A stretch of DNA of 64,000 nt from Pseudomonadota bacterium (GTDB lineage: Bacteria > Pseudomonadota > Alphaproteobacteria > CACIAM-22H2): assembly GCA_016201015.1 (NCBI GenBank), contig JACQDQ010000194.1:11149-75148 (forward strand), in the 5' to 3' direction. The notes below the pieces were generated by a model, which saw only the letters and a program-made list of their open reading frames with translations, was not told the origin of the DNA and searched no databases. Below, piece by piece: positions 31,269-59,175 of the stretch. The position numbers and the translations under genes were made by a program. Numbering within the stretch: position 1 is the stretch's first letter; every line of letters starts with the position of its first letter.

Positions 31269-32324
<1,056 letters not shown>

Positions 32325-32389
32325 AGTAACCATGCGAGGAAAGCCCGCCGGGCTAACGGTCGCGATCGAGGATCGGGGCGGGTAACGCG

Positions 32390-33274: not shown

Positions 33275-33786
33275 AGACCCTCGCGCTTCAGCGCTTCGAC
33301 GTCGCAATCCGGCGGGCGACGCCGTTCATGCTCACGCTGTTCGTCGTGCTGCTGAAATTCGTTCCTCTGCCCGTGCCGGACTACGGACTGATTGCGCCCG
33401 ATTTCGTGCTGATGGCGGTGTTCTATTGGACGGTTCACCGCGCCGACCTCATGCGCCCGGCCGTCGTCTTCGTCGTCGGGCTGTTGGATGATATTCTGTC
33501 CGGCGTGCCGCTGGGACTAAGCGCATTGACACTCTTGCTCGTCCATTGGACGATCGTGTCCCAGCATCGGGCCTTTCGCAGCCGGAGCTTCGCCATCATC
33601 TGGTGCGGCTTCGCCTTGATCGCCGTCGGTGTCCAGGTGCTTGTTACTGTGCTCGCGCTTGTGATTGGCGGTGCGCCGGTTCAGCCGATCGTATTCGCGG
33701 CCAAGTTGGCTATTACGGTCGGGCTCTATCCGGCTCTTGCCTGGGTCATGGGTTGCGCGCAGCGAGCCTTCCTGGTGGAGGCATAG
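33271..33786 (+). CDS. mreD: rod shape-determining protein MreD
   Basis: 171 aa polytopic membrane protein between mreC and mrdA. Confidence 0.75.
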   Translation: MKTLALQRFDVAIRRATPFMLTLFVVLLKFVPLPVPDYGLIAPDFVLMAVFYWTVHRADLMRPAVVFVVGLLDDILSGVPLGLSALTLLLVHWTIVSQHRAFRSRSFAIIWCGFALIAVGVQVLVTVLALVIGGAPVQPIVFAAKLAITVGLYPALAWVMGCAQRAFLVEA

Positions 33787-33793
33787 TGCGGAC

Positions 33794-35659: not shown

Positions 35660-35668
35660 GGGCCGACG

Positions 35669-36898: not shown

Positions 36899-36974
36899 GG
36901 GCCATTAGCTCAATTGGTAGAGCAGCGGACTCTTAATCCGTTGGTTGGGGGTTCAAGTCCCTCATGGCCCACCA
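36899..36974 (+). tRNA. tRNA-Lys (anticodon CTT), CCA encoded
   Basis: Cloverleaf folded by hand: 7-bp acceptor stem GGGCCAT/ATGGCCC, D-arm GCTC..GAGC, anticodon loop CTCTTAA, T-arm GGGGGTTCAAGTCCCTC, 3' ACCA. Confidence 0.85.
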
Positions 36975-37934: not shown

Positions 37935-38522
37935 TCAGGCGATCGCGTACTCGGCTGCGGCATCGACGAGCCAGGCCCACAAATACCTGGCGAAGCTCGG
38001 CGCGACATAGAGATCGTAGGTCGGCGTCTCGTCGATCTGATGCAGGATGATTTGCGCGCGGGCTAGCTGGCTCTGTGCGCAACGGCCGGGGACAAATTCG
38101 CGCGGGTGCAGGTCGAGCGGGCAACCCTTCATCAGGATGTCGCGCGCGCTGGGTCCGGCCAATCGAATCACCGTGCGCCCGTCGCTAACATCCGTGACGG
38201 CGGCGTGCTGTCCGACGAGTGCACGGCACAGCCGCTCGGCGATGTCGGCCTCGCGCTCGGGCGTTGTCGTCACCATCCACTCGCGCGGCCCCAGCCACAG
38301 GGCGGCGAGATCGCCGTCCACGGCGACAGTATTGGCGGTCGTCGGCAATGCGAAACCGAGAACGGCACGGGAGACATCGAGGAATTCGCGCGTGTCGGCC
38401 GAACCGCGGAGGATCAGTTTGCCGACAAAGGGCCGTTCCTCGAATCGCACGGTCGCGAAGATACCGCGCGGTGGCCACGAGGCGGCGTCGAGCGGGCTCC
38501 CCCATTGCGTCCGATCAGCCAT
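37935..38522 (-). CDS. soxG: sarcosine oxidase gamma subunit
   Basis: 195 aa, positioned after soxA; GcvT-like small-subunit features. Confidence 0.85.
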   Translation of the reverse strand: MADRTQWGSPLDAASWPPRGIFATVRFEERPFVGKLILRGSADTREFLDVSRAVLGFALPTTANTVAVDGDLAALWLGPREWMVTTTPEREADIAERLCRALVGQHAAVTDVSDGRTVIRLAGPSARDILMKGCPLDLHPREFVPGRCAQSQLARAQIILHQIDETPTYDLYVAPSFARYLWAWLVDAAAEYAIA

Positions 38523-41520: not shown

Positions 41521-41798
41521 CGGGGCGTCTCCGGTGGAGGCTCACCCATACGATAGACGGTAACAATCTGATGAGTGACGGTGTCGCGTTCGACGTTGAA
41601 CCACTGGCGACAGCCGCGGGCGTGCATCCAGCGTTCGCGGTGGCGGCCCTTCGGATTCTTGCGCATGAAGAGAAAATCTGCCCAGTCGGCATCGGTCGTC
41701 GTTGCTGGGTTTTGCGGTCGCGCAATATGTGCCTCGCCGCCGTAAGCGAATTCCGTCTCGTCGCGCGGGCCGCAATAGGGGCAGGGGATGCGCAGCAT
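41517..41798 (-). CDS. soxD: sarcosine oxidase delta subunit
   Basis: MLRIPCPYCGPRDETEFAYGGEAHIARP, a typical SoxD start; 93 aa. Confidence 0.9.
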   Translation of the reverse strand: MLRIPCPYCGPRDETEFAYGGEAHIARPQNPATTTDADWADFLFMRKNPKGRHRERWMHARGCRQWFNVERDTVTHQIVTVYRMGEPPPETPR

Positions 41799-41799
41799 G

Positions 41800-43050
41800 T
41801 CAGTGGGCCACGGCGGCAGCGCCGTGCTCGTCGATCAGGCTGCCATTGGCGAAGCGATCGAGCGCGTAGGGCGCGTTCAGCGGATGTGGCTCGTCGCGTG
41901 CGATCGTGTGGGCGAAGACGTGACCGGAGCCCGGCGTCGCTTTGAAGCCTCCGGTACCCCACCCGCAGTTGAAGTAGAGGCCTCGGATCGGTGTCTTGCC
42001 GATGATCGGGGAAGCATCGGGGCAGACATCGACGATACCGCCCCAGCTGCGCATCATCTTGAGGCGGCTGAAGATCGGGAACAGCGTCACCGTCGACGCC
42101 ATGATCTCCTCGATCACCGACAGGCTGCCGCGCTGGGCATAGGACGTATAAGCGTCGATGCCGGCGCCCAGGACCAGCTCGCCCTTGTCGGACTGACTGA
42201 CATAGACATGCACGGCGGCCGACATCACGACCGTATGTAGGATTGGCTTGATCGGCTCGGAAACGAGCGCCTGCAGTGGATGGCTTTCGATGGGCAGGCG
42301 CAGGCCCGCCATTGCCGCCAGCACGCTCGAATGGCCGGCGGTGACGCACGCGACCTTCGGCGCAGCCATGAATCCACGCGTCGTTTCGACGCCGAGCACG
42401 CGGTCGCCGTCGCGCCGGATGCCGGTGACTTCGCAGTTCTGGATGATGTCGATGCCACGCGCATCTGCGGCACGGGCGAAGCCCCAGGCGACCGCGTCAT
42501 GGCGCGCCACGCCGCCGCGCCGCTGCAGGCTGGCGCCCAGCACCGGATAGCGGCTGTCCGGCGAGCAGTTGAGGATCGGCACCATCTCCTTGACCTGCTC
42601 GACGTTAAGGATTTCGGAGTCGATGCCGTTCAGGCGAATCGCGCTGACGCGCCGCTGCAGCTCGCGCAGGTCGTGCAGATTGTGCGCGAGGTTGAGCACG
42701 CCGCGCTGACTGAACATGACATTGAAATTGAGATCTTGGCTCAAACCTTCCCACAGTTTGAGCGAATGCTCGTAGAGACGGGCACTCTCGTCCCAAAGGT
42801 AGTTGGAGCGGACGATCGTGGTGTTGCGGCCGGTATTGCCGCCGCCGAGCCAGCCCTTTTCGAGCACGGCCACGTTGGTGATGCCGTGCTCCTTGGCAAG
42901 ATAATAGGCTGTCGCGAGCCCGTGCCCGCCGCCGCCGACGATGATCACATCGTAGGCCGGCTTCGGTTCCGGGCTACGCCACGCCGCCTGCCAGTTCTGG
43001 TGATAGCTCAGTGCATTGCGCAGCAAGCTGAAGATCGAATAGCTCTTCAT
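41800..43050 (-). CDS. soxB: sarcosine oxidase beta subunit
   Basis: [14 protein letters not shown]...[19 protein letters not shown]. Start placed at the conserved MKSYS methionine; the ORF track extends to 43080. Confidence 0.9.
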
Positions 43051-43126
43051 GCGCGCGGATATTTGCAGGCCGCTTGCCACAATTCAAGTTGCAACAACGT
43101 CAGGTGTATGAATAGTCGGTACGCAT

Positions 43127-46514: not shown

Positions 46515-47351
46515 TCAGTCCGCAGCGGCATTCGCCGCGGGGCGATGCGTGTCGAAATGGCGGCCGAGAAAGCTGCGTAGATCGGCGACGCAGCGGTCGG
46601 CAAGAAAGTCGCAGACGTTGTGCGGAGCATCCTCATAGGACAGGACATCGATCCGAGGTATGCGCTCGCGCATCAGCTCGAAGCTGCGCATTGAGCCGAT
46701 CTTGCCGAGGCCGGGCACGACCAGCAGGGTCGGGCAGCGGATCTGGTGCAGCCGATCGCTCCAGTCCTGCGACGCCATCAACGTGATGAAGCGGACGACA
46801 TACGCTGTGTCGTTCTTCGCCGTCTCGTCCAGGAACCATTCGATCAGCCCAGGATCGACCCCGCCGACGGGGAAGCGGTCGTCGATCGTGTCCGCGAGGA
46901 AGCCGCGCAGCCCCTTGCTTTCGACCTGCGGCAGCCAGGACGCCGCCTGACTATCCTTGAGACCCGGCTGCGAGCCATAAAGCGCGATGCTGCGGGCCCG
47001 CTGCGGCGTGTCCATGGCAATCTGCTGCGCCAGGTAGCCGCCGGCCGAGTTGCCGACTAGATGCGCGCTGGCAAGGCCCATCGTGTCGAGAAACTCGATG
47101 ACATCCTTGACCACGCGCCCGATGGTGAGCGGCAGATTGGGGGGCGGGATCTGCGACTCGCCGTGCCCGCGCAGATCGAGGCGGAACACGCGATAGTGCC
47201 GCGCCAAGCCGGGTACCCAGGAATAGAAGCGTCTGGCGCTGCCCATGGCCGAATGGAGCAGGACGAGTGCATCGGAATTGCGCCACGAATCGGTGAAATC
47301 GTCGGCCAGGTAGTGCAGTTCGACTCCATCGCTGGCCGTGAAGAAAGGCAT
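46515..47351 (-). CDS. alpha/beta-fold hydrolase
   Basis: HGESQ and nucleophile elbow GNSAGG motifs; 278 aa. Confidence 0.8.
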   Translation of the reverse strand: MPFFTASDGVELHYLADDFTDSWRNSDALVLLHSAMGSARRFYSWVPGLARHYRVFRLDLRGHGESQIPPPNLPLTIGRVVKDVIEFLDTMGLASAHLVGNSAGGYLAQQIAMDTPQRARSIALYGSQPGLKDSQAASWLPQVESKGLRGFLADTIDDRFPVGGVDPGLIEWFLDETAKNDTAYVVRFITLMASQDWSDRLHQIRCPTLLVVPGLGKIGSMRSFELMRERIPRIDVLSYEDAPHNVCDFLADRCVADLRSFLGRHFDTHRPAANAAAD

Positions 47352-47699
47352 AGGCCGTCTCGGTATATGTCAATCGGCCGATATTTATAGCCAGGATCGC
47401 GAACGGAGTCCCGCTTGCGGCGGCCGGGCGCACGCCGAACAGCCGATGGGCGGAAGATGGCGACACGGCATGACCACCAATCGCCACGCTTTCGGCAGCG
47501 TGCCGCTCGGTCGCTCGCTCGACACGGCAGGCCAAGTGACAAAATGGTGACGTCGCCCGCAATACTTGAACCCGCAAATTGGACACAAACTGTTGACGGC
47601 GACGATTTAGACTATAGGCTGATGCGAACACCACGGCGAACGACGGTGGGCAGGGGTGTCGGCCCTGCCACAGTTGAGCCACAATGCAACGGGGGATCG
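47352..47699. promoter_or_regulatory. ~350-nt divergent intergenic region, presumed promoter region of the multihaem-cytochrome operon
   Basis: Largest non-coding gap in this area; precedes seven co-directional tightly spaced genes. No specific motif assigned. Confidence 0.3.
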
Positions 47700-48653
47700 A
47701 TGATTTACCGGACATGCGCTGCATATGCGGCGGGCGTCCTGGGACTCGTCCTGGGGCTGAGTCTGAGAATCGACATGGCGGCGGCCGAACCCTTCTACGT
47801 CGGCGCCAAGAAGTGCGAGGAATGCCATCGCCCAGAAAGCGACGTATGGGAGGGCATGAAGCACGCAAAGTCGTTCGGCGAGATCCACCGTAAGCCGGAA
47901 GTTCGCGCGATCATTCAGGCCGCCGGCGGCAACACCAACATGCGGCGCAACGAGGTCTGCATCCAGTGCCACTACACGAATGCCAAGGCCGACGCGGGCG
48001 CCCAACCGCAGGCAGTATCCGGACCATCGTGCGAATCCTGCCACGGACCAGCTTCCGATTGGATCTCGGTCCACAACAATTTCGGCGGGCCGAACGCCAA
48101 GAAGGCCGACGAAACGCCGGCTAACAGGGCCAAGCGCCAGGCGGACGCCTCGAAGGCCGGCATGATCTGGCCGCAGGAGATATACGAGGTCGCGCAAAAC
48201 TGCATGTCCTGTCACGGACTGTCGCGCCCAGGCGTCGATGGCGCAGCGATTGGCAAGATGATCGAGGCGGGGCACCCGGTTAAGGGCGAATTCGAATTCG
48301 TGCTCTATTCGCAGGGCACAGTTCGCCACCGCTTCTATAACTCGACAACGAATTCGGAGATGGCGCCTGCCGAAGCGGCACGCGCCTTCATCGCCGGCCA
48401 TGCGGCGGCGCTGGTCAACGTAACGGCGGCCAAGGGCAAGAGCAGCGATGCCAAATTCACAGCTGCGCAGCAAAAGCTCGAGCAGGCAGCGCGCAAGGCG
48501 CTGGACGCGGTCAAGGGCGCGGCGCCGGAAGCGGCGACCCTGCTCTCCGCGCCCACTGACGACAACGCCCAGAAACTGGTTGCGGCGATCGCCAGCAAGG
48601 ATCTCTCGGCGCAAGTCGGTGGTATGCTGCCGGCGAAGAACACCTATAAGTAG
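47700..48653 (+). CDS. periplasmic tetrahaem c-type cytochrome with an Ala/Lys-rich helical C-terminal tail
   Basis: Four CxxCH motifs (CEECH, CIQCH, CESCH, CMSCH) after a hydrophobic N-terminal leader. Confidence 0.75.
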   Translation: MIYRTCAAYAAGVLGLVLGLSLRIDMAAAEPFYVGAKKCEECHRPESDVWEGMKHAKSFGEIHRKPEVRAIIQAAGGNTNMRRNEVCIQCHYTNAKADAGAQPQAVSGPSCESCHGPASDWISVHNNFGGPNAKKADETPANRAKRQADASKAGMIWPQEIYEVAQNCMSCHGLSRPGVDGAAIGKMIEAGHPVKGEFEFVLYSQGTVRHRFYNSTTNSEMAPAEAARAFIAGHAAALVNVTAAKGKSSDAKFTAAQQKLEQAARKALDAVKGAAPEAATLLSAPTDDNAQKLVAAIASKDLSAQVGGMLPAKNTYK

Positions 48654-48750
48654 GGTGACCGAATCGCCGAAGAGTTTGGATTGAGCGGCGTGTGATCAAT
48701 TTGTTCGGAGGTAGGCCCGCGAGAACAGATGGCGGTGCCGCGGGCAACGG

Positions 48751-50463
48751 GTGCGGCATGGGGAAGGGACGAGGGAACAGGCGATGACCGATGTCGCGAT
48801 GATGGCACGGCCCCAGCGCTGGGACGTGCCGTTCGACCCCGCGATGACCGATGCCGACGTGCGACTCCTGTTGCAGCGGCGAGAGTTCCGCGACATCAAG
48901 CCGGACAACTTTCCGCCGCACATGCCGCTCGAGGGCATCCTCAAGAACGACGCGCGTCTCGTCCACTTTCGGCCGGGCGACATCGTGGTGCGCGAAGGCG
49001 ACTATGGCAACTCCGCCTTCCTCGTCCTCGAGGGCCGTCTGCGCGTGGTGCTGGCGCCGGGGCTGCCGCCCGATCTTCACGGCCGGCAGCACGGCCGCCA
49101 GAAGGGCTTCTTCGAGGCGCTGGCGCAGCTATGGACCAATCGCCGTATCCCGGAGGTGCGGGACATCCGTCGTTACCGCTTCGCCCGCGAGGGACTGCGG
49201 CACGATTACTCGAGCGGCAATGTCCGCGTGTTCATTCAGGACATCCCTGCCGTACTCGACAAGCACCGCACCGCCGGTCTTGAGGATGGCGCGATCTTCG
49301 GCGAGATCGCCGCGCTTGGGCGCGTGCCGCGTACCGCCTCGATCTTCGCCGAGACTGATGCCAGGCTGCTCGAAATTCGCTGGCAGGGCCTTCGGGAACT
49401 TCGCCGCTACGACGAGAATTGGCGACGGCAGATCGACGAACGGTACCGAGCAAACGCACTGCGCACGCATCTTCGGGACACCAAGATCTTCGAGGGCTTG
49501 GACGAGAATGTGCTTGAGGCCATTGCCGAGCGGACCCTGTTCGAAACCTATGGCAGCTTCGACTGGCACCTTTCCTATAAGCAGCTCATGCAGCGCGGCG
49601 AAAATGCGGAAGCGAAGGAGCCGGTTATCGCGCAGCAGGGCGACTATCCCGACGGTGTATTGCTGATTCGCGCAGGCTTCGCGCGGGTCAGCATGAAGCT
49701 GGGTACCGGGAAGCGGACGCTCACCTATCTAGGTGCCGGAGATCACTATGGATTCGACGAACTCTATGCCAATTGGAAATCCGGGGAAACAAAGCCGTTG
49801 CAGACGACGCTGACGGCGGTCGGCTATATCGACATCTTGCGTGTTCCGGCCGAAGTGCTCGAGAAGCATGTCTTTCCCCGCCAGGCGCAACCGCCCAAGG
49901 CGCTCATTTCGCTCGCCGACCGCCCGCTGTCCGACGATGCCTTGATCGACTGGGCCGTCGACAAGCGGTTCATCAACGCCACCAAGGCGATGCTCATCGA
50001 TCTCGATCGCTGCGTGCGCTGCGACGATTGTGTCCGCGCCTGCGCCAGCACCCATGGCGGCAATCCGCGCTTTGTCCGCGCCGGCTCGACGTTCGACCAC
50101 TGGATGGTCACGAACGCCTGCATGCATTGTGCCGACCCGGTCTGCATGATCGGCTGCCCGACCGGCGCCATCCATCGCAGCCTCGAAGGCGGTACGGTCG
50201 TCATCAACGACGACACTTGCATCGGCTGCGGCACCTGTGCCGCGTCGTGCCCCTACGACAACATCCGCATGGTCGAAATCACCGACGTGAGCGGCAAGGA
50301 GCTGGTCGACCCGAAGACGCGGCAGCCCATTCTCAAGGCGACCAAGTGCGATCTGTGCGAGAGCAATCCGGGCGGCCCGGCTTGCGTTCGCGCCTGCCCG
50401 CACGACGCATTGCGGCGTGTCGACTTCCGCGATACCAATCCCTTCCGGTCGCCGAACGCATGA
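48751..50463 (+). CDS. fusion protein: two cNMP-binding (CAP-like) domains plus a four-cluster [4Fe-4S] NrfC/DmsB-type ferredoxin module
   Basis: Beta-roll/FGEIAALG signature appears twice. C-terminus carries CVRCDDCVRAC, CMHCADPVCMIGCP, CIGCGTCAASCP and CDLCESNPGGPACVRACP. No HTH and no Tat signal. Confidence 0.75.
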   Translation: MRHGEGTREQAMTDVAMMARPQRWDVPFDPAMTDADVRLLLQRREFRDIKPDNFPPHMPLEGILKNDARLVHFRPGDIVVREGDYGNSAFLVLEGRLRVVLAPGLPPDLHGRQHGRQKGFFEALAQLWTNRRIPEVRDIRRYRFAREGLRHDYSSGNVRVFIQDIPAVLDKHRTAGLEDGAIFGEIAALGRVPRTASIFAETDARLLEIRWQGLRELRRYDENWRRQIDERYRANALRTHLRDTKIFEGLDENVLEAIAERTLFETYGSFDWHLSYKQLMQRGENAEAKEPVIAQQGDYPDGVLLIRAGFARVSMKLGTGKRTLTYLGAGDHYGFDELYANWKSGETKPLQTTLTAVGYIDILRVPAEVLEKHVFPRQAQPPKALISLADRPLSDDALIDWAVDKRFINATKAMLIDLDRCVRCDDCVRACASTHGGNPRFVRAGSTFDHWMVTNACMHCADPVCMIGCPTGAIHRSLEGGTVVINDDTCIGCGTCAASCPYDNIRMVEITDVSGKELVDPKTRQPILKATKCDLCESNPGGPACVRACPHDALRRVDFRDTNPFRSPNA

Positions 50464-51275
50464 AGGCCCTGGCGCGTGCCCTTGCCGTTCCGGCCGGGAT
50501 CAGCCTCCTCTTCGTTGCGGGGCTGGCCCTGTGGCTGCATCAGCGCTGGCTTCAACTCGGCGACACCGGCCGCATCACCGGCTACATATTGTTCGCCGTG
50601 ATGTTGGGGCTCGGCGTGCTCAATCTGCGCAAGCGCCTGTCAATGGTGCCGTTGGCCCGCGCAGCCGACTGGGTGTCATGGCATGCCGTTGGCGGCGTGC
50701 TGGCCCTCGCGCTATTCTGGCTGCACACCAACACGCTGTGGCCAGCGGGACCGTACGAGCAGTTTCTCGCCTTGCTATTTTATCTGGTGACAATTACCGG
50801 CATCGCCGGATATGCGTTGCAGAAGGTGACTCCGAAGTGGCTGACGCAGACCGGAATCGAGCTCATTTTCGAACGGATTCCGATCGAGATCGTGCGGTTG
50901 CGATTGACCGCTGAGCGTGTCGTCTACGATTGCTGCGAGGCGACGGGGAGCGAGACCCTGGGCCGCTTCTATCTCGAAACGCTCGACTGGTATTTCCGCA
51001 AGCCACGCTTCCTGACCAGCACCCTGGGTGGCGGGCGGCGCGGCCAGCGCTGGGTCCGGCAGCAATGCGACGGTGTCGCGCGCGCACTCCAGGCCAATGA
51101 AATTTCCTATCTCGAGACGCTGCGCCAGCTCGCGGACGCAAAGGCGCTGGCCGACATTCACTATTCCCTGCAAGGGGCAACCAAGCTTTGGCTGCTCGTC
51201 CACGTGCCGCTCGCGGCAGCGGTTCTGGTGGTCGCTCTGTGGCACTTGCTCGTCGTCAGCGTCTACGCCCTATGA
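50460..51275 (+). CDS. polytopic membrane protein (5 predicted TM) with intramembrane His residues, possibly b-type haem binding
   Basis: TM helices with H27, H76, H90, H250, H262; ATGA start-stop overlap with the upstream Fe-S gene. Confidence 0.55.
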   Translation: MKALARALAVPAGISLLFVAGLALWLHQRWLQLGDTGRITGYILFAVMLGLGVLNLRKRLSMVPLARAADWVSWHAVGGVLALALFWLHTNTLWPAGPYEQFLALLFYLVTITGIAGYALQKVTPKWLTQTGIELIFERIPIEIVRLRLTAERVVYDCCEATGSETLGRFYLETLDWYFRKPRFLTSTLGGGRRGQRWVRQQCDGVARALQANEISYLETLRQLADAKALADIHYSLQGATKLWLLVHVPLAAAVLVVALWHLLVVSVYAL

Positions 51276-53191
51276 CCCAGCCCTTCAAGTTCATCCCTGT
51301 CGATACTGGCTACGAGCGGCCGAATTTTCCGTGGCGCTGCGGCGCCGGCGCGCACTGGACGCGTCCGTGCACGCTGGGCCCCTCGATCCACGGCCAATGC
51401 CGCGGTACATCGGAATGCGCTCCGACGCGCAAGGGGGATCGCTGGGAGTGCCGCCGCCCGGCCTCGCTCGGGGGATCATGTCCGGTCGGGCCCGGCACCG
51501 ATGGCAGCTGCTCGCAGATTCATCCCCCCTGCGCGCCGGTGCGCACGATCCGCGGCTGGCGCGGGCACCTCACGGTGCTTGCCATCGTCCTCATGCTCAG
51601 TCTGATTGCAGCACTGCACAGCGAATCCTTTACCCGGGCGAGTGGGGTGAGCTCGATCAATCCTGGTCCGCTCACCAGCCGCCACGCGCAGTTCGTCGGT
51701 GAACAGGGTTGTGCCACCTGCCATGCCGCACATGGCCAGGGGCCAGGCGGCTGGTTGGCAGCGGCATTCGCCCCGCGCGATGCGAGCGGCCGCTGCGTCG
51801 ACTGCCATGCCTTCGGCGGATCGGCTGAAGCGGCCCACAACACGACGTTTGAGAAGCGACAAGACGTGGCGCAGACGTCGTGCATCATGTGCCATACAGA
51901 GCACAAGGGCCAAACGGCCAATCTCGTGCAGATTGCCGATGCCCAGTGTCAGACCTGTCACACCGAGAAATTCGACCACTTCGCCAAGAATCATCCGCAG
52001 TTTGGCCCGCACTATCCGTATCCCGAGCGTGGGGCCATCCAATTCAACCACGTCGCCCATTTCGATAAGCACTTCGCCGACCCGCGGTACAAGCCGAACG
52101 CGCCGACGGGCTGCGTCGGCTGCCATCGCCTCGACGCCGGGGTGAACGTCATGCGCACGACGAAATTCGCCGACATGTGCGCGACATGCCATACCGATCA
52201 GATCACGCGGCGCGAATTCGTCCTGTTCCGCTTGCCTGAATTCAACGAGAGCAAGATTGCCGCCGCAAAGGTCACGGAGGCGTGCGGTCCGTCTCCTGCC
52301 GAGTTGGAGTCGCTCAAGGCGCGGCTGAATGCGCTGACGCGCGGCACGCCGTCGCCGCCGGCGAAGAATGAGCCGTATTCGAGCATCTCTGCCGATCCGC
52401 CCAACGCGGTGCTGGCCTATTTGCTGGGGGTGCCGGCCGACGATCCGGACGCCTACGGCGAGTCGGTCCAATCTCTTGTGCTGGACATGGCCCGTGACGG
52501 TGTTATGCCGTTGGCCGACAAGCTGCCGGCCTCCGCTGCGAGGCCGGCGCTGCTCGCCGGCCTCAACGGCGAATTGGTCCGCCGCGTCGCCTGCGCCTGG
52601 GCGGCCAATCGCGAATACGAGCCGCCGCCGGAAGGCAAGGGAACGACCGGATGGAAGGCGGACGGCCTAACGCTGCGCTTGGTTCCGGCCGGCCATGCCG
52701 ATCCGGTCGTGCGCAGTTGGTTGGATTTTGTTGTCTCCGGACCGCCGGCAAAGAGCAAGGAAGATGCTGCCCGACTCGACGCGATGCGCAAGGAGATGCT
52801 GTCGACCGCGGAAGGGCCCGGAGCGTGCGTCAAATGCCATGCCCTGACGGCGGCTTCGGCCGACAAGTTGCAAATAGATTGGTCGAAGCACTACGCGCGC
52901 AGCGGGCCGCAGACGCGCTTCCTGCATGCCCCGCACGTCAACTTGCTGGGGCCGGATGCGACGTGCACCGTCTGCCATAAATTCGATTCGACCGCCGACT
53001 ACGCGGCCGCCTTCAAGACCCTGGACCCACACCAATACGTCAGCAACTTCAAGGCAATGGTGACAACGACCTGCAGCGGGTGCCACGCCGCGGGCAAAGT
53101 CCGGGCTGATTGCCAAGCCTGCCATATCTATCATCGCGACCACACGTTCAAAAAGCGCATGGTGAACATCGACTCGGCAGCGGCCAACTGA
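51272..53191 (+). CDS. decahaem c-type cytochrome with an N-terminal Cys-rich segment and one TM helix
   Basis: Ten CxxCH motifs. The first ~100 aa hold 8 Cys but no CxxCH, followed by LTVLAIVLMLSLIAAL. ATGA overlap with the upstream gene. Confidence 0.8.
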   Translation: MTQPFKFIPVDTGYERPNFPWRCGAGAHWTRPCTLGPSIHGQCRGTSECAPTRKGDRWECRRPASLGGSCPVGPGTDGSCSQIHPPCAPVRTIRGWRGHLTVLAIVLMLSLIAALHSESFTRASGVSSINPGPLTSRHAQFVGEQGCATCHAAHGQGPGGWLAAAFAPRDASGRCVDCHAFGGSAEAAHNTTFEKRQDVAQTSCIMCHTEHKGQTANLVQIADAQCQTCHTEKFDHFAKNHPQFGPHYPYPERGAIQFNHVAHFDKHFADPRYKPNAPTGCVGCHRLDAGVNVMRTTKFADMCATCHTDQITRREFVLFRLPEFNESKIAAAKVTEACGPSPAELESLKARLNALTRGTPSPPAKNEPYSSISADPPNAVLAYLLGVPADDPDAYGESVQSLVLDMARDGVMPLADKLPASAARPALLAGLNGELVRRVACAWAANREYEPPPEGKGTTGWKADGLTLRLVPAGHADPVVRSWLDFVVSGPPAKSKEDAARLDAMRKEMLSTAEGPGACVKCHALTAASADKLQIDWSKHYARSGPQTRFLHAPHVNLLGPDATCTVCHKFDSTADYAAAFKTLDPHQYVSNFKAMVTTTCSGCHAAGKVRADCQACHIYHRDHTFKKRMVNIDSAAAN

Positions 53192-53546
53192 CCGGCGGCG
53201 CGGCCGGCCGGCACGCCTCGGTTTGCGCTGCATCAAAGGCTGAGAGGAGTTCGCAGTATGGGCCGGCAACCGGTTCAAAACATTTATGAATTGCTGCGCG
53301 TGTAGTATGGTGTATAAAGGTTAATCAGTGTCCGGGTGGCGCCGCGGGGTTTCGCCATGTTAAGGTTTTGGTAACGGGTACTGGTGTCCGATGAAGCAGC
53401 GAGCACAAGCAGTGGTAAGGCTCCGCTCGAACCAGGAACGAGACCGGGACGGACGGCCAAAATCCCGGCGCTATCGCAGGCGGTCTGCCAGGGAGGTTGA
53501 CGCTTCCGCGCCATTGCGGCGCGGCTGGATTGGGGAGACGCCCTCC

Positions 53547-55331
53547 ATGTCTCGTCGCATTCGGCTCGCGACCACCGCGATCGCGGCCTCGTTCCGCGTC
53601 GCTTCATCAATGCTTTTGGGACTGTCGATCAGCGCCGCGGCCACCGCGGGGAGCGCATGGGCACAGACCGCGGCAGCAGGGGTAGACCCGCATGCTGCGT
53701 TGCTCGCTGAGACTTCGTATCCTAGCGCGTCGCAATGCGCGGTGTGTCACCGCCAGATCTACAACGAATGGTCTTCGTCGAATCACGCCTATGCGTCGAT
53801 CTCGCCGATGTTCCACAAGTTCGAGCAGGCGATCAACGAGCTCGCCTCGGGGACGGTCGGTACGTTCTGCGTACGTTGTCACCAGGGCGCCGGCACGCAA
53901 CGCGGCGAGCCGCGCGAGAAGCCGCTGTGGGAGCGCTCGGCTGCCGCGCGCGAAGGCGTCACCTGTATCTCCTGTCATCGCGTGCAGGAGGAATACGGGC
54001 GTGCCAACGGTGAGCGGCTGATCGAGCCCGGCGATGTCTCTGCGCCTGTCTTTAACGCGCACGAATCGACCGGGCTCGGCAAGGTGATCGCCGAGAATGA
54101 TTTCTACAAGGTGGCGACGACGCCGGCCGAGCGCGGCAGCCGCATCCATCTCAGAGCGCTCAAGAATGAGCAGATCGGCAAGTCGGAATTCTGTCTGTCC
54201 TGCCATCAGGTTGCGGTCCATCCAGGCATCAAGCTCGAGGTCGTGTGGGAGCAGTACCGCGCGGCGCCGGCGGCGCAGCAGGGCGTGGTCTGCCAGGAAT
54301 GCCACATGGGCAAGGTTCCCGGTAAGCCGATGGGCTATGCCGTCGGCCCGACTGCGGTGGTCAACGGGCAGGCCGTCGAACCGAACCGCAAGCACTCCAA
54401 CCACTCATTCTACGGGCCGGGTTATCCAATCGCCCATCCGGGCATCTTTCCGCACAATCCCAAGGCCGAGAACCATTCGATCCAAGAATGGCTACGCTAT
54501 GACTATCGCGCCGGCTGGGGCAATCCCGAGTTTGAGGACAAGGTCGAGAAAAATCAGATCAAGGCGGAATTCCCACAGGAATGGGCCGACCGCGTCGACC
54601 GCGAGGAAGCCTTCGAAGTCATCCAGGAGAATCTGCAGCGGCTCGAGGAGAAGCGGAAGCTGCGTGTCGCCGTCATGGAGAATGGCTCCAAGATCGACGG
54701 ACCGTTTTTCGGCTCCACGCCCCGGCTTGGTCAATCGCTGAGTTTCACCTATCGCGTAGCGAACACGAGCACCGGCCACAACTTTCCGTCCGGCTCGCTC
54801 GGCGCTCAACCGGAAATCTGGCTGAACGTCGCGCTGACCGATCCGGCCGGCAAGACGGTGTGGGAATCCGGCTATACCGACAGCAACGGCGACATGGCCG
54901 ACCTGCACTCGCACGATGTCGCCGCCAGCCGCATCAAGCACGACGATCAGCTGTTCAACCTGCAGACCAAGTTCCTGACCACCAACGTCAAGGGCACGGA
55001 TCGCGAGATGTATCTGCCGATCAATTTCGACGTCGATCAACTGCCCTTCATACGGCCTGCAACTATACCGACGACCGTGCTCAACCATCCGCCTTTCATC
55101 CGCATGGAAGGGCGAAGCCTGCCGCCGCTGAGTTCGCGCAACGCCAATTACAGCGTGACCGGCTCGGCGCTCTCGGCGCCTGGCAAGTACCGGCTGTCGG
55201 TGCGTCTGCGGAGCCGTGCCGAGCCGATCTACTTCATGCGCTTCGTCGGGGCCACTGTCGAAATGGAGCAGGCGATGAATGAGTGGCTCATCGACATTCA
55301 TCCCTACGCCGTCGAGTTCGAGGTGAAATGA
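53547..55331 (+). CDS. pentahaem c-type cytochrome with a ~330 aa haem-free C-terminal domain
   Basis: Signal peptide plus CAVCH, CVRCH, CISCH, CLSCH, CQECH. The ORF track starts at 53391, but MSRRIRLATTAIAAS followed by a signal sequence is the likely start. Confidence 0.7.
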   Translation: MSRRIRLATTAIAASFRVASSMLLGLSISAAATAGSAWAQTAAAGVDPHAALLAETSYPSASQCAVCHRQIYNEWSSSNHAYASISPMFHKFEQAINELASGTVGTFCVRCHQGAGTQRGEPREKPLWERSAAAREGVTCISCHRVQEEYGRANGERLIEPGDVSAPVFNAHESTGLGKVIAENDFYKVATTPAERGSRIHLRALKNEQIGKSEFCLSCHQVAVHPGIKLEVVWEQYRAAPAAQQGVVCQECHMGKVPGKPMGYAVGPTAVVNGQAVEPNRKHSNHSFYGPGYPIAHPGIFPHNPKAENHSIQEWLRYDYRAGWGNPEFEDKVEKNQIKAEFPQEWADRVDREEAFEVIQENLQRLEEKRKLRVAVMENGSKIDGPFFGSTPRLGQSLSFTYRVANTSTGHNFPSGSLGAQPEIWLNVALTDPAGKTVWESGYTDSNGDMADLHSHDVAASRIKHDDQLFNLQTKFLTTNVKGTDREMYLPINFDVDQLPFIRPATIPTTVLNHPPFIRMEGRSLPPLSSRNANYSVTGSALSAPGKYRLSVRLRSRAEPIYFMRFVGATVEMEQAMNEWLIDIHPYAVEFEVK

Positions 55332-56890
55332 TTCGCAGGGGAGAAGCGGGGGGGAGCGAGAGTCGCCCCGACGCAACAGGGCGCGGAGGGCGCCATCGCG
55401 CAGGCCGATGGTTGCTGGCATGCGTCGGCGCGATCGCGCTGGCAGCCGCTGCACATGCGGCCGATCCGCCGGAGATGTCGCCCGACGTCAAGTCGATTCC
55501 TTACGATCCGAAGGTATTCAAGCAGGACCCGACCTACGACGACAAGCCGTACGATGCGCAGCGGCAGCAGGATATCTATGGTGGGAAGAAGGCGGTCGAT
55601 ACGCCGCGGCCGGTGATCGAAATCGGTCGCCCGCTCTACACCGAAGGTCCGTTTCGTCCGAGCTCGGTACTGCTTGGCGAAAAGAATCTGATCGCGCCCA
55701 GCCTGTGGCTTTACGGCGACTGGCGGACGGCGGTGGCCTACAACGACAACGGCAAGAAGGAGGATGCGCAGATCGCCACCCGCCTGAATCTTGATGTCGA
55801 TCTGAAGCTTACCGCGACCGAACGCGTCCACGCCTTCTTCCGTCCGCTTGATCAGGGCGGCCAGTTCACGCATTACTCATTTGCCGGCGACGATCGCAGT
55901 CAGGGCAAGTTCATCAAGGACGGCAATCTCGAGAACTTATTCTTCGAAGGCGATCTCGGCGCGATGGCGCAGGGACTGACCGGGGAATACAACGGCGTCG
56001 ATCTGCCCGTCGCCGCCGGCCTCATGCCGATGCTGTTCCAGAACGGCGTGTGGGTCGACGACGCGTTTACCGGATTTGCCTTCGCGATTCCGGCGCGAAA
56101 CAGCAAATTCCTCGACATCTCCAACATGGACATCACCTACTTCATGGGCCTCGACAAGGTGTCCACCGCGGCGATCAGGGATGACAAGAAACAGATCGCC
56201 GACCACAACGTGCAGCTCTATGGCGTCGCCGCGTTTGTCGAAACGCTCGAAGGTTACTTCGAAGTCGGCTACGGCTATACGCGTGGTGAGGGGATATTCG
56301 ACGAACTCAGCTATCACAACGCGACGCTCGCGTTTACCCGGCGTTACGGCGGCTTCTTGTCGAACAGCGTGCGGGGCATCTGGAATTTCGGCCAGAACCG
56401 CCGCAACAACCAGCAGCAAACCGCTGACGGCTTCATCTTGTTGGTCGAAAACTCGCTGATCACCTCGAAGCCGCTGACGCTGGTGCCATATTTCAATTTC
56501 TTTGCCGGATTCGATCGGCCGCAGTCGTTGGCGCGCGATCCGGGTGCCGGCGGCGTGCTCAAGAATACCGGCATCAACTTCGAGACCGATGGCCTGACCG
56601 GCTTTCCGAAGCTCGACGATACCGGGCAGAACACCTATGGCGGCGCGGTCGGTCTGCAGTATTTGTTCAATCTCGACCAGCAGATCGTGGTCGAGGCGGC
56701 GGGGCTCAAGGTGCGTGAAGGCAACTTCGAGGCCGGACGTCCGGCGCGCGGCGATGAATTCGCGATTGGCGTGCGCTACCAGATTCCGGTGACAAATCGT
56801 TGGATCTTCCGCGCCGACGCGATCAAGGCGTGGCGCGAGAATGACGCGGATTTCGCCGGGATCCGCGCGGAGGTTCGGCGCAAGTTCTGA
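55328..56890 (+). CDS. putative outer-membrane beta-barrel (porin-like) protein
   Basis: Signal peptide WLLACVGAIALAAAAHA, alternating amphipathic beta-strand pattern, Tyr/Gly-rich, C-terminal ...VRRKF; ATGA overlap with the pentahaem gene. Confidence 0.55.
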   Translation: MIRRGEAGGSESRPDATGRGGRHRAGRWLLACVGAIALAAAAHAADPPEMSPDVKSIPYDPKVFKQDPTYDDKPYDAQRQQDIYGGKKAVDTPRPVIEIGRPLYTEGPFRPSSVLLGEKNLIAPSLWLYGDWRTAVAYNDNGKKEDAQIATRLNLDVDLKLTATERVHAFFRPLDQGGQFTHYSFAGDDRSQGKFIKDGNLENLFFEGDLGAMAQGLTGEYNGVDLPVAAGLMPMLFQNGVWVDDAFTGFAFAIPARNSKFLDISNMDITYFMGLDKVSTAAIRDDKKQIADHNVQLYGVAAFVETLEGYFEVGYGYTRGEGIFDELSYHNATLAFTRRYGGFLSNSVRGIWNFGQNRRNNQQQTADGFILLVENSLITSKPLTLVPYFNFFAGFDRPQSLARDPGAGGVLKNTGINFETDGLTGFPKLDDTGQNTYGGAVGLQYLFNLDQQIVVEAAGLKVREGNFEAGRPARGDEFAIGVRYQIPVTNRWIFRADAIKAWRENDADFAGIRAEVRRKF

Positions 56891-56946
56891 TCGGCGCCGG
56901 CTGGTCCGATCGGGCGTATCAGATCGAAGAGGAACGGGGCGGAGCG

Positions 56947-58218
56947 GTGGATATCCTTCTGACGGTTGCTGGGGCCGCGGTCATGGTGGCGATGGCGGCC
57001 TATGTCGTGAATCTTAGCCTCATGCAGTGGCGGGTCGCCGCGTTGGCGCGCGGCCGCGTCGAGGATGAGCGGACTCTGCTCAAGGAGCGGATCGCGCAGC
57101 TCGCCTTGAAGCGGCAGTTCGAAGAGCAGCGCAACGAATTGTCGTGGAGCGGGTTCCGCAAGTTCGAAGTCGTGCGTAAGGTGCTCGAGGGCGGCGGCGT
57201 CGCCTCGATCTATATGCGCCCGCACGATGGCAAAAAGCTGCCGCCGTTCCGTCCGGGCCAGTACTTGACGTTCCGGCTTAATGTTCCCGGTCAGCGTCAA
57301 CCGGTCATCCGCTGCTATTCGCTGTCCGACAACCCGAATCCCGAGCATTTCCGCATCTCGGTGAAGAAAGTGCTGCCGCCACGCGATAAGCCGGATGTGC
57401 CGTCCGGCCTGTCGTCGACCTACTTCAACGACGTGGTGAAGGAAGGCGATATCATCGATGTGAAGGCACCGGGTGGCGGCTTCTACCTCGACACCACCAA
57501 GCCACGCCCGATCGTTCTGATCGGCGGCGGCATTGGGCTGACGCCGGTCTTTAGCATGCTCAAGGCGGTCTGCGAATCGTCGAGCAAGCAGGAGGCTTGG
57601 TTCTTCTATGGCGTGCGCAATCGCGTCGAGCATATTTGGCGCGATGAATTCTCGCGGATTGCGCGTGAAAACGAGAATGTCCGTTTGCATGTCTGCTATA
57701 GCGACCCGACGCCCGAGTGCCACGAGGGCACCGACTACCAGCATGCGGCGCGAGTGGGTGTCGATCTCCTGAAGCGGCTGCTGCCGTCGAACAACTACGA
57801 GTTCTATATCTGCGGCCCGCCGCCGATGATGGATTCGATCACCTCAGGACTCGCCGAATGGGGCGTGCCCGAGGACCGCGTCCATTTCGAGGCATTCGGA
57901 CCGGCCACGGTCAAGAAGGTCGCGAAAGCGGCGGAGGCGCCCGTGGCGGCACCCGGCGCGCCGACATTGCAGGTCCTATTCGCCAAGTCGGGGCGGACGG
58001 TTCGCTGGGACGGCCGCGCGGCATCGCTGCTCGAGCTTGCGGAGGCGAACGGCATCACGATCGATTTCGGCTGCCGTGCCGGCAATTGCGGCACATGCCT
58101 GACCGCGATCAAGAACGGCGACGTGAGCTACGTCAACCCGCCGGGTTCGATGCCGGAAAAGGGCTCGTGCCTGACCTGCGTGTCCGTACCCAAATCCGAT
58201 CTGACATTGGACGCCTGA
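56947..58218 (+). CDS. membrane-anchored ferredoxin-NAD(P) reductase family oxidoreductase with a C-terminal [2Fe-2S] ferredoxin domain
   Basis: N-terminal TM helix, FAD motif RCYSLS, NAD motif GGGIGLTP, and a C-terminal CRAGNCGTC...C plant-type ferredoxin motif; GTG start 57 nt after the beta-barrel gene. Confidence 0.8.
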   Translation: MDILLTVAGAAVMVAMAAYVVNLSLMQWRVAALARGRVEDERTLLKERIAQLALKRQFEEQRNELSWSGFRKFEVVRKVLEGGGVASIYMRPHDGKKLPPFRPGQYLTFRLNVPGQRQPVIRCYSLSDNPNPEHFRISVKKVLPPRDKPDVPSGLSSTYFNDVVKEGDIIDVKAPGGGFYLDTTKPRPIVLIGGGIGLTPVFSMLKAVCESSSKQEAWFFYGVRNRVEHIWRDEFSRIARENENVRLHVCYSDPTPECHEGTDYQHAARVGVDLLKRLLPSNNYEFYICGPPPMMDSITSGLAEWGVPEDRVHFEAFGPATVKKVAKAAEAPVAAPGAPTLQVLFAKSGRTVRWDGRAASLLELAEANGITIDFGCRAGNCGTCLTAIKNGDVSYVNPPGSMPEKGSCLTCVSVPKSDLTLDA

Positions 58219-58227
58219 CGTCCGGCC

Positions 58228-59175
58228 TTAACGAGCCGGGACAAGTTCGGCGGCGGCGGCGACAAGGGCGAGGCCGCGCGCAGCGGCATGCGCCTCGCCA
58301 TATTGCGTGGCGAGCCCGCGGGTGGCCAGTGCCGTCACGTAGAGCTTGCCGAGGGACTGCGTGCCGACCAGGGTGATCGTAGCCGGCTTCGTGCTGCCGG
58401 CCCTTGCCGCCAGGCAGGCAAGCGCCTCGTCGATTTCCGTCCCGATGACGAGACCGCTCAGATAGGAGCGTAGCGCTGTCGCCGGTACCTGCTCGAACAG
58501 ACCAAGCGTGCGTGTACTGAACAGCTTCTTCAGCAATCCGCCATGACCCGCTGAGGCTGCGTAGTCGATGCCGCGGCGAAATGCCGCCACGTCCTCCGAT
58601 TCCCCCGCCATCAGGCGACCCAGGATACTGTGTGCCGCGAGCACCGCGAAAACCTCGCCGGTCATGAACGTTGCGAACCATACGATTCGGCCATTCTCGA
58701 CGAGCACCCACTTGCTATGGGTTCCCGGGAGAACGAAGGTGGCCTGCGCGGTCGCGCTTGAGCCGCCGAGGGCGCCGACGATCTGCGTTTCTTCACCTCG
58801 CATCACGTCGGGCACGTCGTCATCGTTGCGCATGACACCCGGAACAAACCAGAGGCGGCAGCCGTTCCGGGCCGTATGCGGCACCAGGGCGTGAGCGAGG
58901 TCCTCGAGTCCGGCGGGGCAGGATACGTAAGGCGCCTCCACCCATCCCTGCCGGCTGCCGATCATGCCTGCAGCGACGGCCGGCAATGCGCCGTGCTGTG
59001 CGATCCAGGGGCCTGCAGCCTCGTTGAAGACCCGATCGAAGTCGCAGTCGGGGACGTTCAGGATACCGGATGGCCGCTCGATCCGATCGGCGATACGGCC
59101 CGACCGCGCGATGAGGTAGGCGCGAAACGAAGTCGTCCCCCAGTCTAGGGCAATCAAGACCGGTGGGTCAGACAC
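58228..59175 (-). CDS. dgoK: 2-dehydro-3-deoxygalactonokinase
   Basis: 315 aa; LIALDWGTTSFRAY N-terminus typical of DgoK. Confidence 0.8.
   Translation of the reverse strand: MSDPPVLIALDWGTTSFRAYLIARSGRIADRIERPSGILNVPDCDFDRVFNEAAGPWIAQHGALPAVAAGMIGSRQGWVEAPYVSCPAGLEDLAHALVPHTARNGCRLWFVPGVMRNDDDVPDVMRGEETQIVGALGGSSATAQATFVLPGTHSKWVLVENGRIVWFATFMTGEVFAVLAAHSILGRLMAGESEDVAAFRRGIDYAASAGHGGLLKKLFSTRTLGLFEQVPATALRSYLSGLVIGTEIDEALACLAARAGSTKPATITLVGTQSLGKLYVTALATRGLATQYGEAHAAARGLALVAAAAELVPAR

Follow-up and report, generated by a model that had tools for sequence, protein, structure and literature searches.

The DNA stretch analysed here (the window) covers 64,000 nucleotides of contig JACQDQ010000194.1, from the alphaproteobacterial assembly GCA_016201015.1, and its positions 47700-58218 hold seven genes that are a copy of the already named ptdABCDEFG cluster. 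This cluster was named in 2023 in the alphaproteobacterial order UBA11136 and other bacteria, with a function that, according to its authors, "remains completely unknown" (bioRxiv 10.1101/2023.11.21.568154). From the content of its proteins, we consider it slightly better than even that ptd encodes a quinone-independent, NAD(P)H-driven electron-export system, gated by cyclic nucleotides (cNMP) and ending in a periplasmic reductase with a dedicated porin. The genes, taken from a listing of open reading frames, and their c-type haems, counted as CxxCH motifs, are the following:

47700-48653, forward strand: g1, ptdD, 317 aa, four CxxCH motifs
48784-50463, forward strand: g2, ptdE, 559 aa, no CxxCH motif
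50460-51275, forward strand: g3, ptdF, 271 aa, no CxxCH motif
51272-53191, forward strand: g4, ptdG, 639 aa, ten CxxCH motifs
53547-55331, forward strand: g5, ptdA, 594 aa, five CxxCH motifs
55328-56890, forward strand: g6, ptdB, 520 aa, no CxxCH motif
56947-58218, forward strand: g7, ptdC, 423 aa, no CxxCH motif

As proposed in an earlier note on this DNA, the seven genes are co-directional, in the order ptdD-E-F-G-A-B-C on the forward strand, and the three ATGA start/stop overlaps that it had reported can be read directly at 50460 (g2/g3), 51272 (g3/g4) and 55328 (g5/g6). The last overlap hinges on the ATG at 55328, the NCBI product of 492 aa implying a later start. The 19 c-type haems of that note (4 + 10 + 5) were likewise recovered from the motif counts in g1, g4 and g5, and these numbers are kept among orthologues (five in 59 of 60 PtdA, four in 44 of 44 PtdD and ten in 39 of 41 PtdG), so that the haem counts are not due to chance. 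None of the seven proteins reaches an NCBIfam equivalog cut-off.

The correspondence with the published cluster is one to one, g5, g6 and g7 being ptdA, ptdB and ptdC, and g1, g2, g3 and g4 being ptdD, ptdE, ptdF and ptdG, respectively. As described, PtdA is a pentahaem protein that carries a beta-sandwich at its C-terminus, PtdB a porin, PtdC an FAD/NAD(P) oxidoreductase, PtdD a tetrahaem protein, PtdE a cNMP/4Fe-4S protein, PtdF a ferric-reductase-like membrane protein and PtdG a decahaem protein (bioRxiv 10.1101/2023.11.21.568154). Since this list names exactly the seven parts of the window, the view of the earlier note that they match none of the described systems is out of date; the ptd name, or a description of the cluster, was found in no further paper of the literature searched. 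The same authors reported that ptdAB is highly transcribed in Alphaproteobacteria of the largest marine oxygen-deficient zone, and suggested a role in iron reduction or nitrogen cycling (bioRxiv 10.1101/2023.11.21.568154). A locus from the ocean region of that study, the Eastern Tropical North Pacific (L014, isolate ETNP3_MAG_51), carries the full cluster in the same order as the window, with 37-63% identity to the window proteins.

Some features depart from the published description (bioRxiv 10.1101/2023.11.21.568154). While the gene names run from A to G, the window and most Alpha- and Gammaproteobacteria have the order D-E-F-G-A-B-C, the A-to-G order being found in Planctomycetota and Verrucomicrobiota loci. 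Two 4Fe-4S clusters were given for PtdE vs. four deduced here from 16 conserved cysteines, and only saline habitats were reported, whereas the carriers found here also include metagenome-assembled genomes (MAGs) from lake Baikal, groundwater and other non-marine sites. New in the present analysis are thus the four clusters of PtdE and the non-saline distribution, as well as the channel type of the barrel, the lack of a lipoprotein cytochrome, an eight-cysteine domain in PtdG, a second cluster type with an NAD(P)H fusion protein, and a link with nucleotide cyclases.

As for the distribution of the cluster, at least 2,879 relatives of PtdB (E ≤ 1e-3) were found among the scored candidates, which are protein clusters at 90% identity, and at least 3,124 relatives of PtdA. 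Excluding the window's own protein, the best PtdA matches are 57-73% identical; the best 120 PtdB relatives, nearly all labelled as hypothetical, are 56-100% identical (57-69% without the window's own protein). An exact-sequence look-up of PtdB returned one match only, on a 4.6-kb metagenome contig, and a scan of one genome per species yielded 510 PtdB-encoding stretches. Carriers belong to the Alpha- and Gammaproteobacteria, Planctomycetota, Verrucomicrobiota and others, and come from marine, lake Baikal and groundwater MAGs; among the matches listed, a single cultured strain was found, Ferruginivarius sediminum WD2A32.

The seven window proteins were then compared by tblastn with the best 80 of the 510 PtdB loci, and completeness was judged on the 45 loci with enough flanking sequence. 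The full set is present in 35 of these, in several phyla, with the window order D-E-F-G-A-B-C in 33 and another order in two (L074 and L075), which bears out the co-conservation on which the earlier note had made its proposal depend. Three more loci of Planctomycetota (L033, L037 and L060) also have ABC before D, their sequence ending before the full set. The other ten judgeable loci have only g5 and g6. These two genes are adjacent in every locus with upstream sequence, PtdA-PtdB being the constant core. The genes flanking ptd vary between genomes, and the cluster therefore travels as a unit. Median identities to the orthologues are 64% for PtdA, 63% for PtdE, 56% for PtdB, 53% for PtdC, 47% for PtdF, 46% for PtdD and 39% for PtdG, the most divergent component.

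Concerning the cytoplasmic side, PtdC starts with a transmembrane helix (residues 3-21, from hydropathy), continues with an FNR-like FAD/NAD(P) module and ends in a plant-type [2Fe-2S] domain, with Pfam matches to NAD_binding_1 (E 1.7e-19), Fer2 (2e-11) and FAD_binding_6 (5e-7). The best NCBIfam match, below its cut-off, is the reductase half of the flavohaemoprotein Hmp (E 1e-71). Domains and helix agree with the earlier description of g7 as a membrane-anchored FNR-like FAD/NAD(P)/[2Fe-2S] reductase. That of g2 as a cytoplasmic cNMP-binding / four-cluster Fe-S fusion is equally supported, by Pfam and by the conserved cysteines: in PtdE, a cytoplasmic protein, two cNMP domains precede a ferredoxin module of the DmsB/NrfC type, which has four [4Fe-4S] motifs. 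In Pfam, PtdE matches cNMP_binding (E 1.8e-23) and 4Fe-4S dicluster/Fer4 families. The cNMP_binding match falls into three stretches, read as two domains because the homologues of the second cluster type (type B, see below) give two, and the FGE...R phosphate-binding motif is conserved in domain 1. NCBIfam matches of PtdE to DmsB, HydN, DsrO and NrfC are all far below the cut-offs, and neither a hydrophobic segment nor a Tat motif was found in its sequence and hydropathy profile. Four CxxC...C motifs hold its 16 cysteines, whose conservation among 48 orthologues is 96-100% each; this supports four [4Fe-4S] clusters, and the published count of two looks like an undercount.

In PtdF, four helices lie above the hydropathy threshold and a fifth, histidine-bearing one (residues 72-92) was assigned by eye; helices 4 and 5 are separated by a soluble insert of about 110 aa. 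The earlier note had called g3 a His-rich polytopic membrane protein: the five helices agree with a polytopic protein, but with six histidines in 271 aa it is not His-rich. Four of its histidines, H75, H89, H248 and H262, are invariant in 19 homologues, type-B variants included, and have an i,i+14 spacing in two helices. By the positive-inside rule, the two helices would be parallel, with H75 and H248 towards the cytoplasm and H89 and H262 towards the periplasm. This is the arrangement one would expect for two stacked b haems, and PtdF is a candidate transmembrane di-haem b cytochrome of the ferric-reductase-like type.

The likeness to the eukaryotic NOX and FRE and the bacterial MsrQ proteins lies in an FNR-like NAD(P)H/FAD module feeding a membrane domain in which two histidine pairs, in parallel helices, bind two haems (putatively so in PtdF). 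PtdF has the two conserved histidine pairs, its helices are parallel by predicted topology, and its i,i+14 spacing recalls the haem ligands of NOX2 (H101/H115 and H209/H222). On the other hand, PtdF has no match to Pfam Ferric_reduct, even at E up to 10, and its five-helix layout carries a cytoplasmic insert of about 110 aa. The ptd modules are, moreover, separate proteins with a four-cluster ferredoxin between them, and have three multihaem c cytochromes and a porin downstream, unlike NOX and FRE.

On the other side of the inner membrane, PtdD is a periplasmic tetrahaem c-type cytochrome, with a signal-like hydrophobic N-terminus (residues 6-28), a match to Pfam Cytochrome_C554 (E 2.8e-14) and, at the C-terminus, about 130 aa that carry no haem. 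PtdG has one transmembrane helix (98-116, from hydropathy), which follows an N-terminal part of about 95 aa and precedes a periplasmic ten-haem domain; its Pfam matches are Paired_CXXCH_1 and Cytochrome_C7. Matches to the Pfam families of MtrC/MtrF domains II/IV are weak: 34.6 bits for g4, above the cut-off of 30, and below cut-off for g1 and g5. No lipobox cysteine follows the signal sequences of g1 and g5 and, as judged from sequence and hydropathy, none of the ptd cytochromes is a lipoprotein. In the cytoplasmic domain formed by residues 1-95 of PtdG (window 51272-51560), eight cysteines (C23, C33, C43, C49, C60, C70, C80 and C87) follow one another at intervals of about ten residues, each 98-100% conserved in 41 sequences. 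A Pfam search with this domain gave nothing usable at E up to 10; the domain could be a binding site for a metal or a cluster.

PtdA is secreted, and combines an N-terminal five-haem cap, with a Pfam match to Cytochrome_C554, and a very highly conserved C-terminal beta-sandwich. Its AlphaFold2 (AF2) model has a mean confidence (pLDDT) of 68, good in the beta-sandwich and poor in the haem cap, which was modelled without haems. A helical insert lies at about residues 305-380. The C-terminal domain is unusually invariant, as seen for instance in the motif GHNxPSGSLGAQPExW and in the loop 476-522; it has no usable Pfam match at E up to 10, and a Foldseek search of the model against the PDB gave only generic beta-sandwich matches (TM-score 0.1-0.16). 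Outside the five CxxCH motifs, no cysteine is conserved among PtdA and 32 homologues, and no in-frame TGA was found in the gene. In a profile search, all five haem motifs of PtdA align with those of the low-potential pentahaem cytochrome c552 of Thermochromatium tepidum (PDB 5ZE8): the two share full-length fold and haem-motif register and are full-length homologues, although their identity is 19% and PtdA exceeds c552 by about 160 residues. Cytochrome c552 has been linked speculatively to sulfur metabolism. PtdA is a candidate terminal reductase.

An assignment of PtdA to the NrfA/HAO type was rejected: its match to Pfam Cytochrom_C552 is below cut-off (20.7 vs. 24.1 bits) and covers 24 residues only, and its haem motifs are all CxxCH, with no catalytic CxxCK. 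None of the ptd proteins reaches the NrfA, HAO or octahaem equivalog cut-offs, and the Pfam and NCBIfam searches revealed no component of a standard nitrite or hydroxylamine pathway, to which, on the earlier note's own terms, the cytochromes must not belong. In Ferruginivarius sediminum, PtdA (L072:7330-9831) carries a very acidic N-terminal extension rich in Asp, Glu, Gly and Ser and an internal insert, also acidic; the two lengthen the protein by about 240 residues.

PtdB has a signal-like N-terminus (from hydropathy) and a C-terminus ending in ...RRKF, and is predicted to form a beta-barrel of about 18 strands (AF2 pLDDT 79), so that the outer-membrane barrel proposed for the 520-aa g6 holds as a prediction. 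About 75 residues at the start of the mature protein are strongly conserved, and the model has low confidence there. No Pfam or NCBIfam family is matched, MtrB/PioB and OprD included, and Pfam at E up to 10 gives nothing usable. The fold is that of the 18-strand monomeric barrels OprD/Occ, AlgE, MOMP and chitoporin, but identities to these are 7-13%, the Pfam OprD family is not matched, and PtdB differs from such channels by the extra invariant N-terminal segment of about 75 residues and by its obligatory pairing with a cytochrome gene.

Like MtrCAB, MtoAB and PioAB, ptd encodes multihaem c cytochromes, a decahaem one included, beside an outer-membrane barrel. However, the MtrB/PioB barrel has about 26 strands, whereas that of PtdB is of the 18-strand Occ/AlgE type and therefore probably too narrow to sheath a 60-kDa cytochrome. 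The sole ptd decahaem protein (g4) is anchored in the inner membrane with a cytoplasmic N-terminal domain, rather than inserted in the barrel, and scores 26-31 bits against a cut-off of 192 for the MtrA/DmsE family (TIGR03508). Unlike MtrC/OmcA, ptd has no cell-surface lipoprotein cytochrome, a part also absent from MtoAB and PioAB, and its electron input would be NAD(P)H instead of quinol through CymA. On account of the barrel type, the DmsE score, the membrane-anchored decahaem and the missing surface lipoprotein, membership of the MtrCAB type was rejected. Passage of electrons through the outer-membrane barrel, as in MtrCAB, PioAB or Pcc, is the weakest part of the earlier note, and is not supported, given the probable narrowness of the barrel and the three cytochromes without lipobox.

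A second type of cluster, without PtdC, is common to seven of the ten loci with g5 and g6 only (e.g. the Ferrovibrio loci L012 and L044). A 450-aa tetrahaem protein gene precedes ptdA-ptdB, and the opposite strand encodes a fusion protein of 700-800 aa, a PtdF-like membrane protein and a decahaem protein with an N-terminal FHA domain. The fusion protein joins an N-terminal NAD(P)H flavoprotein (Pyr_redox_2/3) to two cNMP_binding domains and 4Fe-4S motifs. Two independent gene architectures thus join an NAD(P)H flavoprotein to cNMP/Fe-S modules, a four-histidine membrane protein and cytochromes, which supports NAD(P)H as the input. Genes for CHASE2-adenylate/guanylate cyclases were also found beside ptd in 11 of the 80 loci, at 14-116 bp from ptdB in two of them (L072:11577-13484 and L079:1265-3538, both on the reverse strand), which suggests that the cNMP domains of PtdE are served by a cyclic-nucleotide signal of their own.

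The domain content, topology signals and folds observed in the seven proteins, together with their co-conservation, can be combined into a chain whose order of carriers we infer. PtdC, at the cytoplasmic face of the membrane, would oxidise NAD(P)H and pass electrons from FAD to its [2Fe-2S] cluster, then to the four [4Fe-4S] clusters of PtdE, whose cNMP domains may gate or tune the flow. PtdF would carry them across the inner membrane on two b haems, from the H75/H248 pair on the cytoplasmic side to the H89/H262 pair on the periplasmic side. From there, the membrane-anchored decahaem PtdG and the tetrahaem PtdD would span the periplasm to PtdA, the c552-type pentahaem protein with its conserved beta-sandwich, acting as putative terminal reductase. 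PtdB would be an 18-strand substrate-type channel that admits or releases a small solute for PtdA, which is probably docked at its periplasmic mouth, and would sheath no cytochrome wire.

The route from cytoplasmic NAD(P)H across the inner membrane to periplasmic multihaem proteins, already present in the earlier note, remains the natural reading of parts and compartments. An outward direction is the more plausible because of the NAD(P)H modules and of bioenergetics; the reverse direction, which that note had also allowed, would run against both redox and membrane potential, with no coupling site visible. PtdA appears to be the business end of the chain because it is a full-length homologue of c552, because PtdA and PtdB are highly conserved (64 and 56%) and always adjacent, and because ptdAB is highly transcribed. 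As such a chain would bypass the quinones and dissipate the membrane potential, it would be reductive rather than respiratory, with detoxification, assimilation or redox dumping as its purpose. Candidate terminal substrates are, in decreasing order, strongly complexed Fe(III), nitrogen oxides or hydroxylamine, O2 and sulfur species.

A precedent for this logic is the extHIJKLMNOPQS cluster of Geobacter sulfurreducens, formerly listed among the candidate outer-membrane conduits, which encodes the porin ExtI, the five-haem ExtKL, cytochromes with 10, 12 and 4 haems, a membrane b cytochrome and a Rieske Fe-S protein. ExtKL is identical to MccSep, which has a selenocysteine and a haem with His/Cys ligation and is a polysulfide reductase of the periplasm, not a conduit component; it has been grouped by others with T. 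tepidum c552 as structural relatives in the pentahaem family. The inventories of ext and ptd are analogous (a porin, a five-haem protein with an Ig-like stem, ten- and four-haem proteins, a membrane b cytochrome, putative in ptd, and an Fe-S protein), and PtdA has the five CxxCH motifs and Ig-like stem of MccSep, an architecture common to the wider pentahaem family. The inner-membrane modules differ, being Rieske/cytochrome b and quinol-linked in ext vs. FNR-like, 4x[4Fe-4S], four-histidine and thus NAD(P)H-linked in ptd, as do the porins, ExtI being weakly OprP-like and PtdB Occ/AlgE-like. PtdA scores 29 bits against a cut-off of 250 for the NCBIfam ExtKL model, and gives no significant match to MccSep in sequence or structure; for this reason, and for want of a Cys/Sec pair, membership of the MccSep type was rejected.

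Several points weigh against the proposed export chain. PtdA has no equivalent of the Cys239/Sec325 pair of the MccSep active site, so that the precedent is one of system logic and not of chemistry, and its model is poor in the haem region, where some 170 residues have a pLDDT of less than 50. PtdF matches no family significantly (with E allowed up to 10, Pfam gives only DUF4405, E 0.27), and its putative haem b binding is deduced solely from the histidine pattern. Nineteen c-type haems far exceed the need of a simple periplasmic enzyme, and would fit a static wire reaching the outer membrane; electrons might also be handed over in or at the PtdB barrel, in the manner of Cyc2.

A rival reading is a true porin-cytochrome extracellular conduit, which is the view of the earlier note and was also floated by the ptd authors (bioRxiv 10.1101/2023.11.21.568154), in which the 19 c-type haems would form a wire to PtdB and reduce extracellular Fe(III)/Mn(IV) or colloids. 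The part list is like that of porin-cytochrome clusters, MtrC/MtrF domain II/IV families are weakly matched in g1, g4 and g5, and 10 + 4 + 5 haems would be enough to span the periplasm. Two invariant segments, the N-terminal extension in PtdB and the loop 476-522 in PtdA, are, moreover, modelled with low confidence, as can be expected if they fold only on complex formation, where they would perhaps plug the barrel, and iron reduction occurs where ptdAB is transcribed (bioRxiv 10.1101/2023.11.21.568154). We nevertheless hold such a conduit to be unlikely, if by no means negligible: the barrel is of the 18-strand Occ/AlgE and not of the 26-strand MtrB type and matches no barrel family, no cytochrome is a surface lipoprotein, most hosts are planktonic bacteria of seas, lakes and groundwater instead of mineral-attached reducers, and an NAD(P)H-fed export that bypasses the quinones would conserve no energy, which is unusual for respiration. 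Quite unlikely, in our estimate, is a narrower version of the outward chain, suggested by the module logic, the planktonic distribution and the cyclase link, according to which ptd would be a bacterial envelope-spanning counterpart of the eukaryotic NOX/FRE, spending cytoplasmic NAD(P)H under a cNMP switch, assisted by the membrane potential, to bring very low-potential electrons to PtdA docked on PtdB at the outer membrane; PtdA could then reduce strongly ligand-bound Fe(III), for iron acquisition in iron-poor waters, or O2, as a source of bacterial extracellular superoxide.

A nitrogen-oxide system, with PtdA as a nitrite, NO or hydroxylamine reductase or oxidase (NrfA/HAO/c554) and PtdB importing the anion, seems distinctly improbable. 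Both PtdD and PtdA match Pfam Cytochrome_C554, the reductase half of Hmp matches PtdC (E 1e-71), and the ptd authors noted a COG3303 (NrfA) membership, the similarity of PtdC to Hmp, and the presence of ptd in nod-transcribing and nitrite-oxidising bacteria (bioRxiv 10.1101/2023.11.21.568154). These points are offset by the sub-cut-off, 24-residue match to Cytochrom_C552, by the absence of any NrfA, HAO or octahaem equivalog and of a CxxCK among the five PtdA motifs, and by the many hosts that are oxic freshwater or groundwater bacteria. As for an inward, lithotrophic uptake, in which Fe(II), sulfide or the like would be oxidised at PtdA/PtdB and electrons passed to NAD(P)+ through PtdF, PtdE and PtdC, we give it a very slight chance. 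PtdAB is found in a MAG of Ferrovibrio, a genus of Fe(II) oxidisers, T. tepidum c552 has its speculative tie to sulfur metabolism, and small barrels such as Cyc2 can serve Fe(II) oxidation. Yet to reach cytoplasmic NAD(P)+ from the periplasm, electrons would have to move against the membrane potential and, in the case of Fe(II), also up in redox potential, the Pfam and NCBIfam searches brought to light no quinone site, proton pump or bifurcating module, and ferric-reductase-type di-haem proteins with FNR modules (NOX/FRE/MsrQ) normally run outward.

The ptd cluster is widespread in oceans, deep lakes and groundwater, with a PtdB relative in at least about 500 species-representative genomes. 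If the export-chain reading is true, bacteria outside sediments would possess a previously unrecognised envelope redox chemistry, which might bear on water-column iron reduction, nitrogen-oxide turnover and reactive-oxygen production. For annotation, the cluster also serves as a warning, since cytochromes and a barrel alone are not proof of an Mtr-type conduit, as the case of Geobacter ExtKL/MccSep illustrates.

Other genes recur next to ptd. Directly 3' of ptdC, 12 alphaproteobacterial loci have a TolC-like outer-membrane efflux gene (Pfam OEP), often with a Pro/Ala-rich tail. In six Gammaproteobacteria, the gene after ptdC encodes an FHA-domain protein (including L003:12942-13892 and L017:10963-11964), and the decahaem protein of the second cluster type (L012:11453-13114, reverse strand) has an FHA domain where the window PtdG has its eight-cysteine domain; these FHA domains hint at a control or docking, at the cytoplasmic face, that depends on phospho-threonine. 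Six loci (including L019:1198-2022) have a metallo-beta-lactamase (MBL)-fold hydrolase gene (Lactamase_B_2) directly 5' of ptdD, conceivably a cyclic-nucleotide phosphodiesterase. A VIT1-family iron/manganese transporter gene lies just 5' of ptdD in a 4.96-Mb alphaproteobacterial chromosome (L005, identical to L002, 1894-2595), a single case that may be a coincidence. TolC-like, CHASE2 cyclase, FHA-protein and MBL-hydrolase genes were not found in this window. Examples of the first two in other loci are:

L007, 6788-8461: TolC-like OEP gene near ptdC (one of 12 loci)
L030, 13008-14921: TolC-like OEP gene near ptdC (one of 12 loci)
L070, 12803-14785: TolC-like OEP gene near ptdC (one of 12 loci)
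L030, 15006-17231, reverse strand: CHASE2 cyclase gene near ptd (one of 11 loci)

Within the cluster, one wider gap is found:

53192-53546, no strand: gap between g4 and g5, 355 bp, with an AT-rich stretch at about 53270-53385

It may be an internal promoter or regulatory region dividing the cluster into ptdDEFG and ptdABC, as each block is relocated as a unit in loci of Planctomycetota and Verrucomicrobiota. A scan of 47000-58600 for consensus promoters and terminators gave nothing above shuffled expectation, and in Rfam and tRNA scans no RNA element came up within or close to the cluster, the sole match being a tRNA-Lys at 36899. With a GC content of 0.62-0.65, the same as in the rest of the window, a genomic-island artefact was ruled out for the cluster. 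Its neighbours are unrelated to it: gamma-glutamyltranspeptidase, polysaccharide deacetylase and hydrolase genes upstream, and DGOK and HU genes downstream.

Farther upstream, a SocA/Panacea-domain antitoxin gene (19076-19615) borders a stretch at about 18-29 kb with a lower third-position GC and two long open reading frames without Pfam match, which is possibly a defence or mobile island. Judging solely by resemblances of the N-terminal sequences, we take 31284-36820 to be the cell-shape genes mreB/mreC/PBP2/rodA, and 37935-43080 is presumably, on the same ground, a four-subunit sarcosine-oxidase-like operon. The tRNA-Lys gene (36899-36974) lies between these two regions, both of which represent a housekeeping context.

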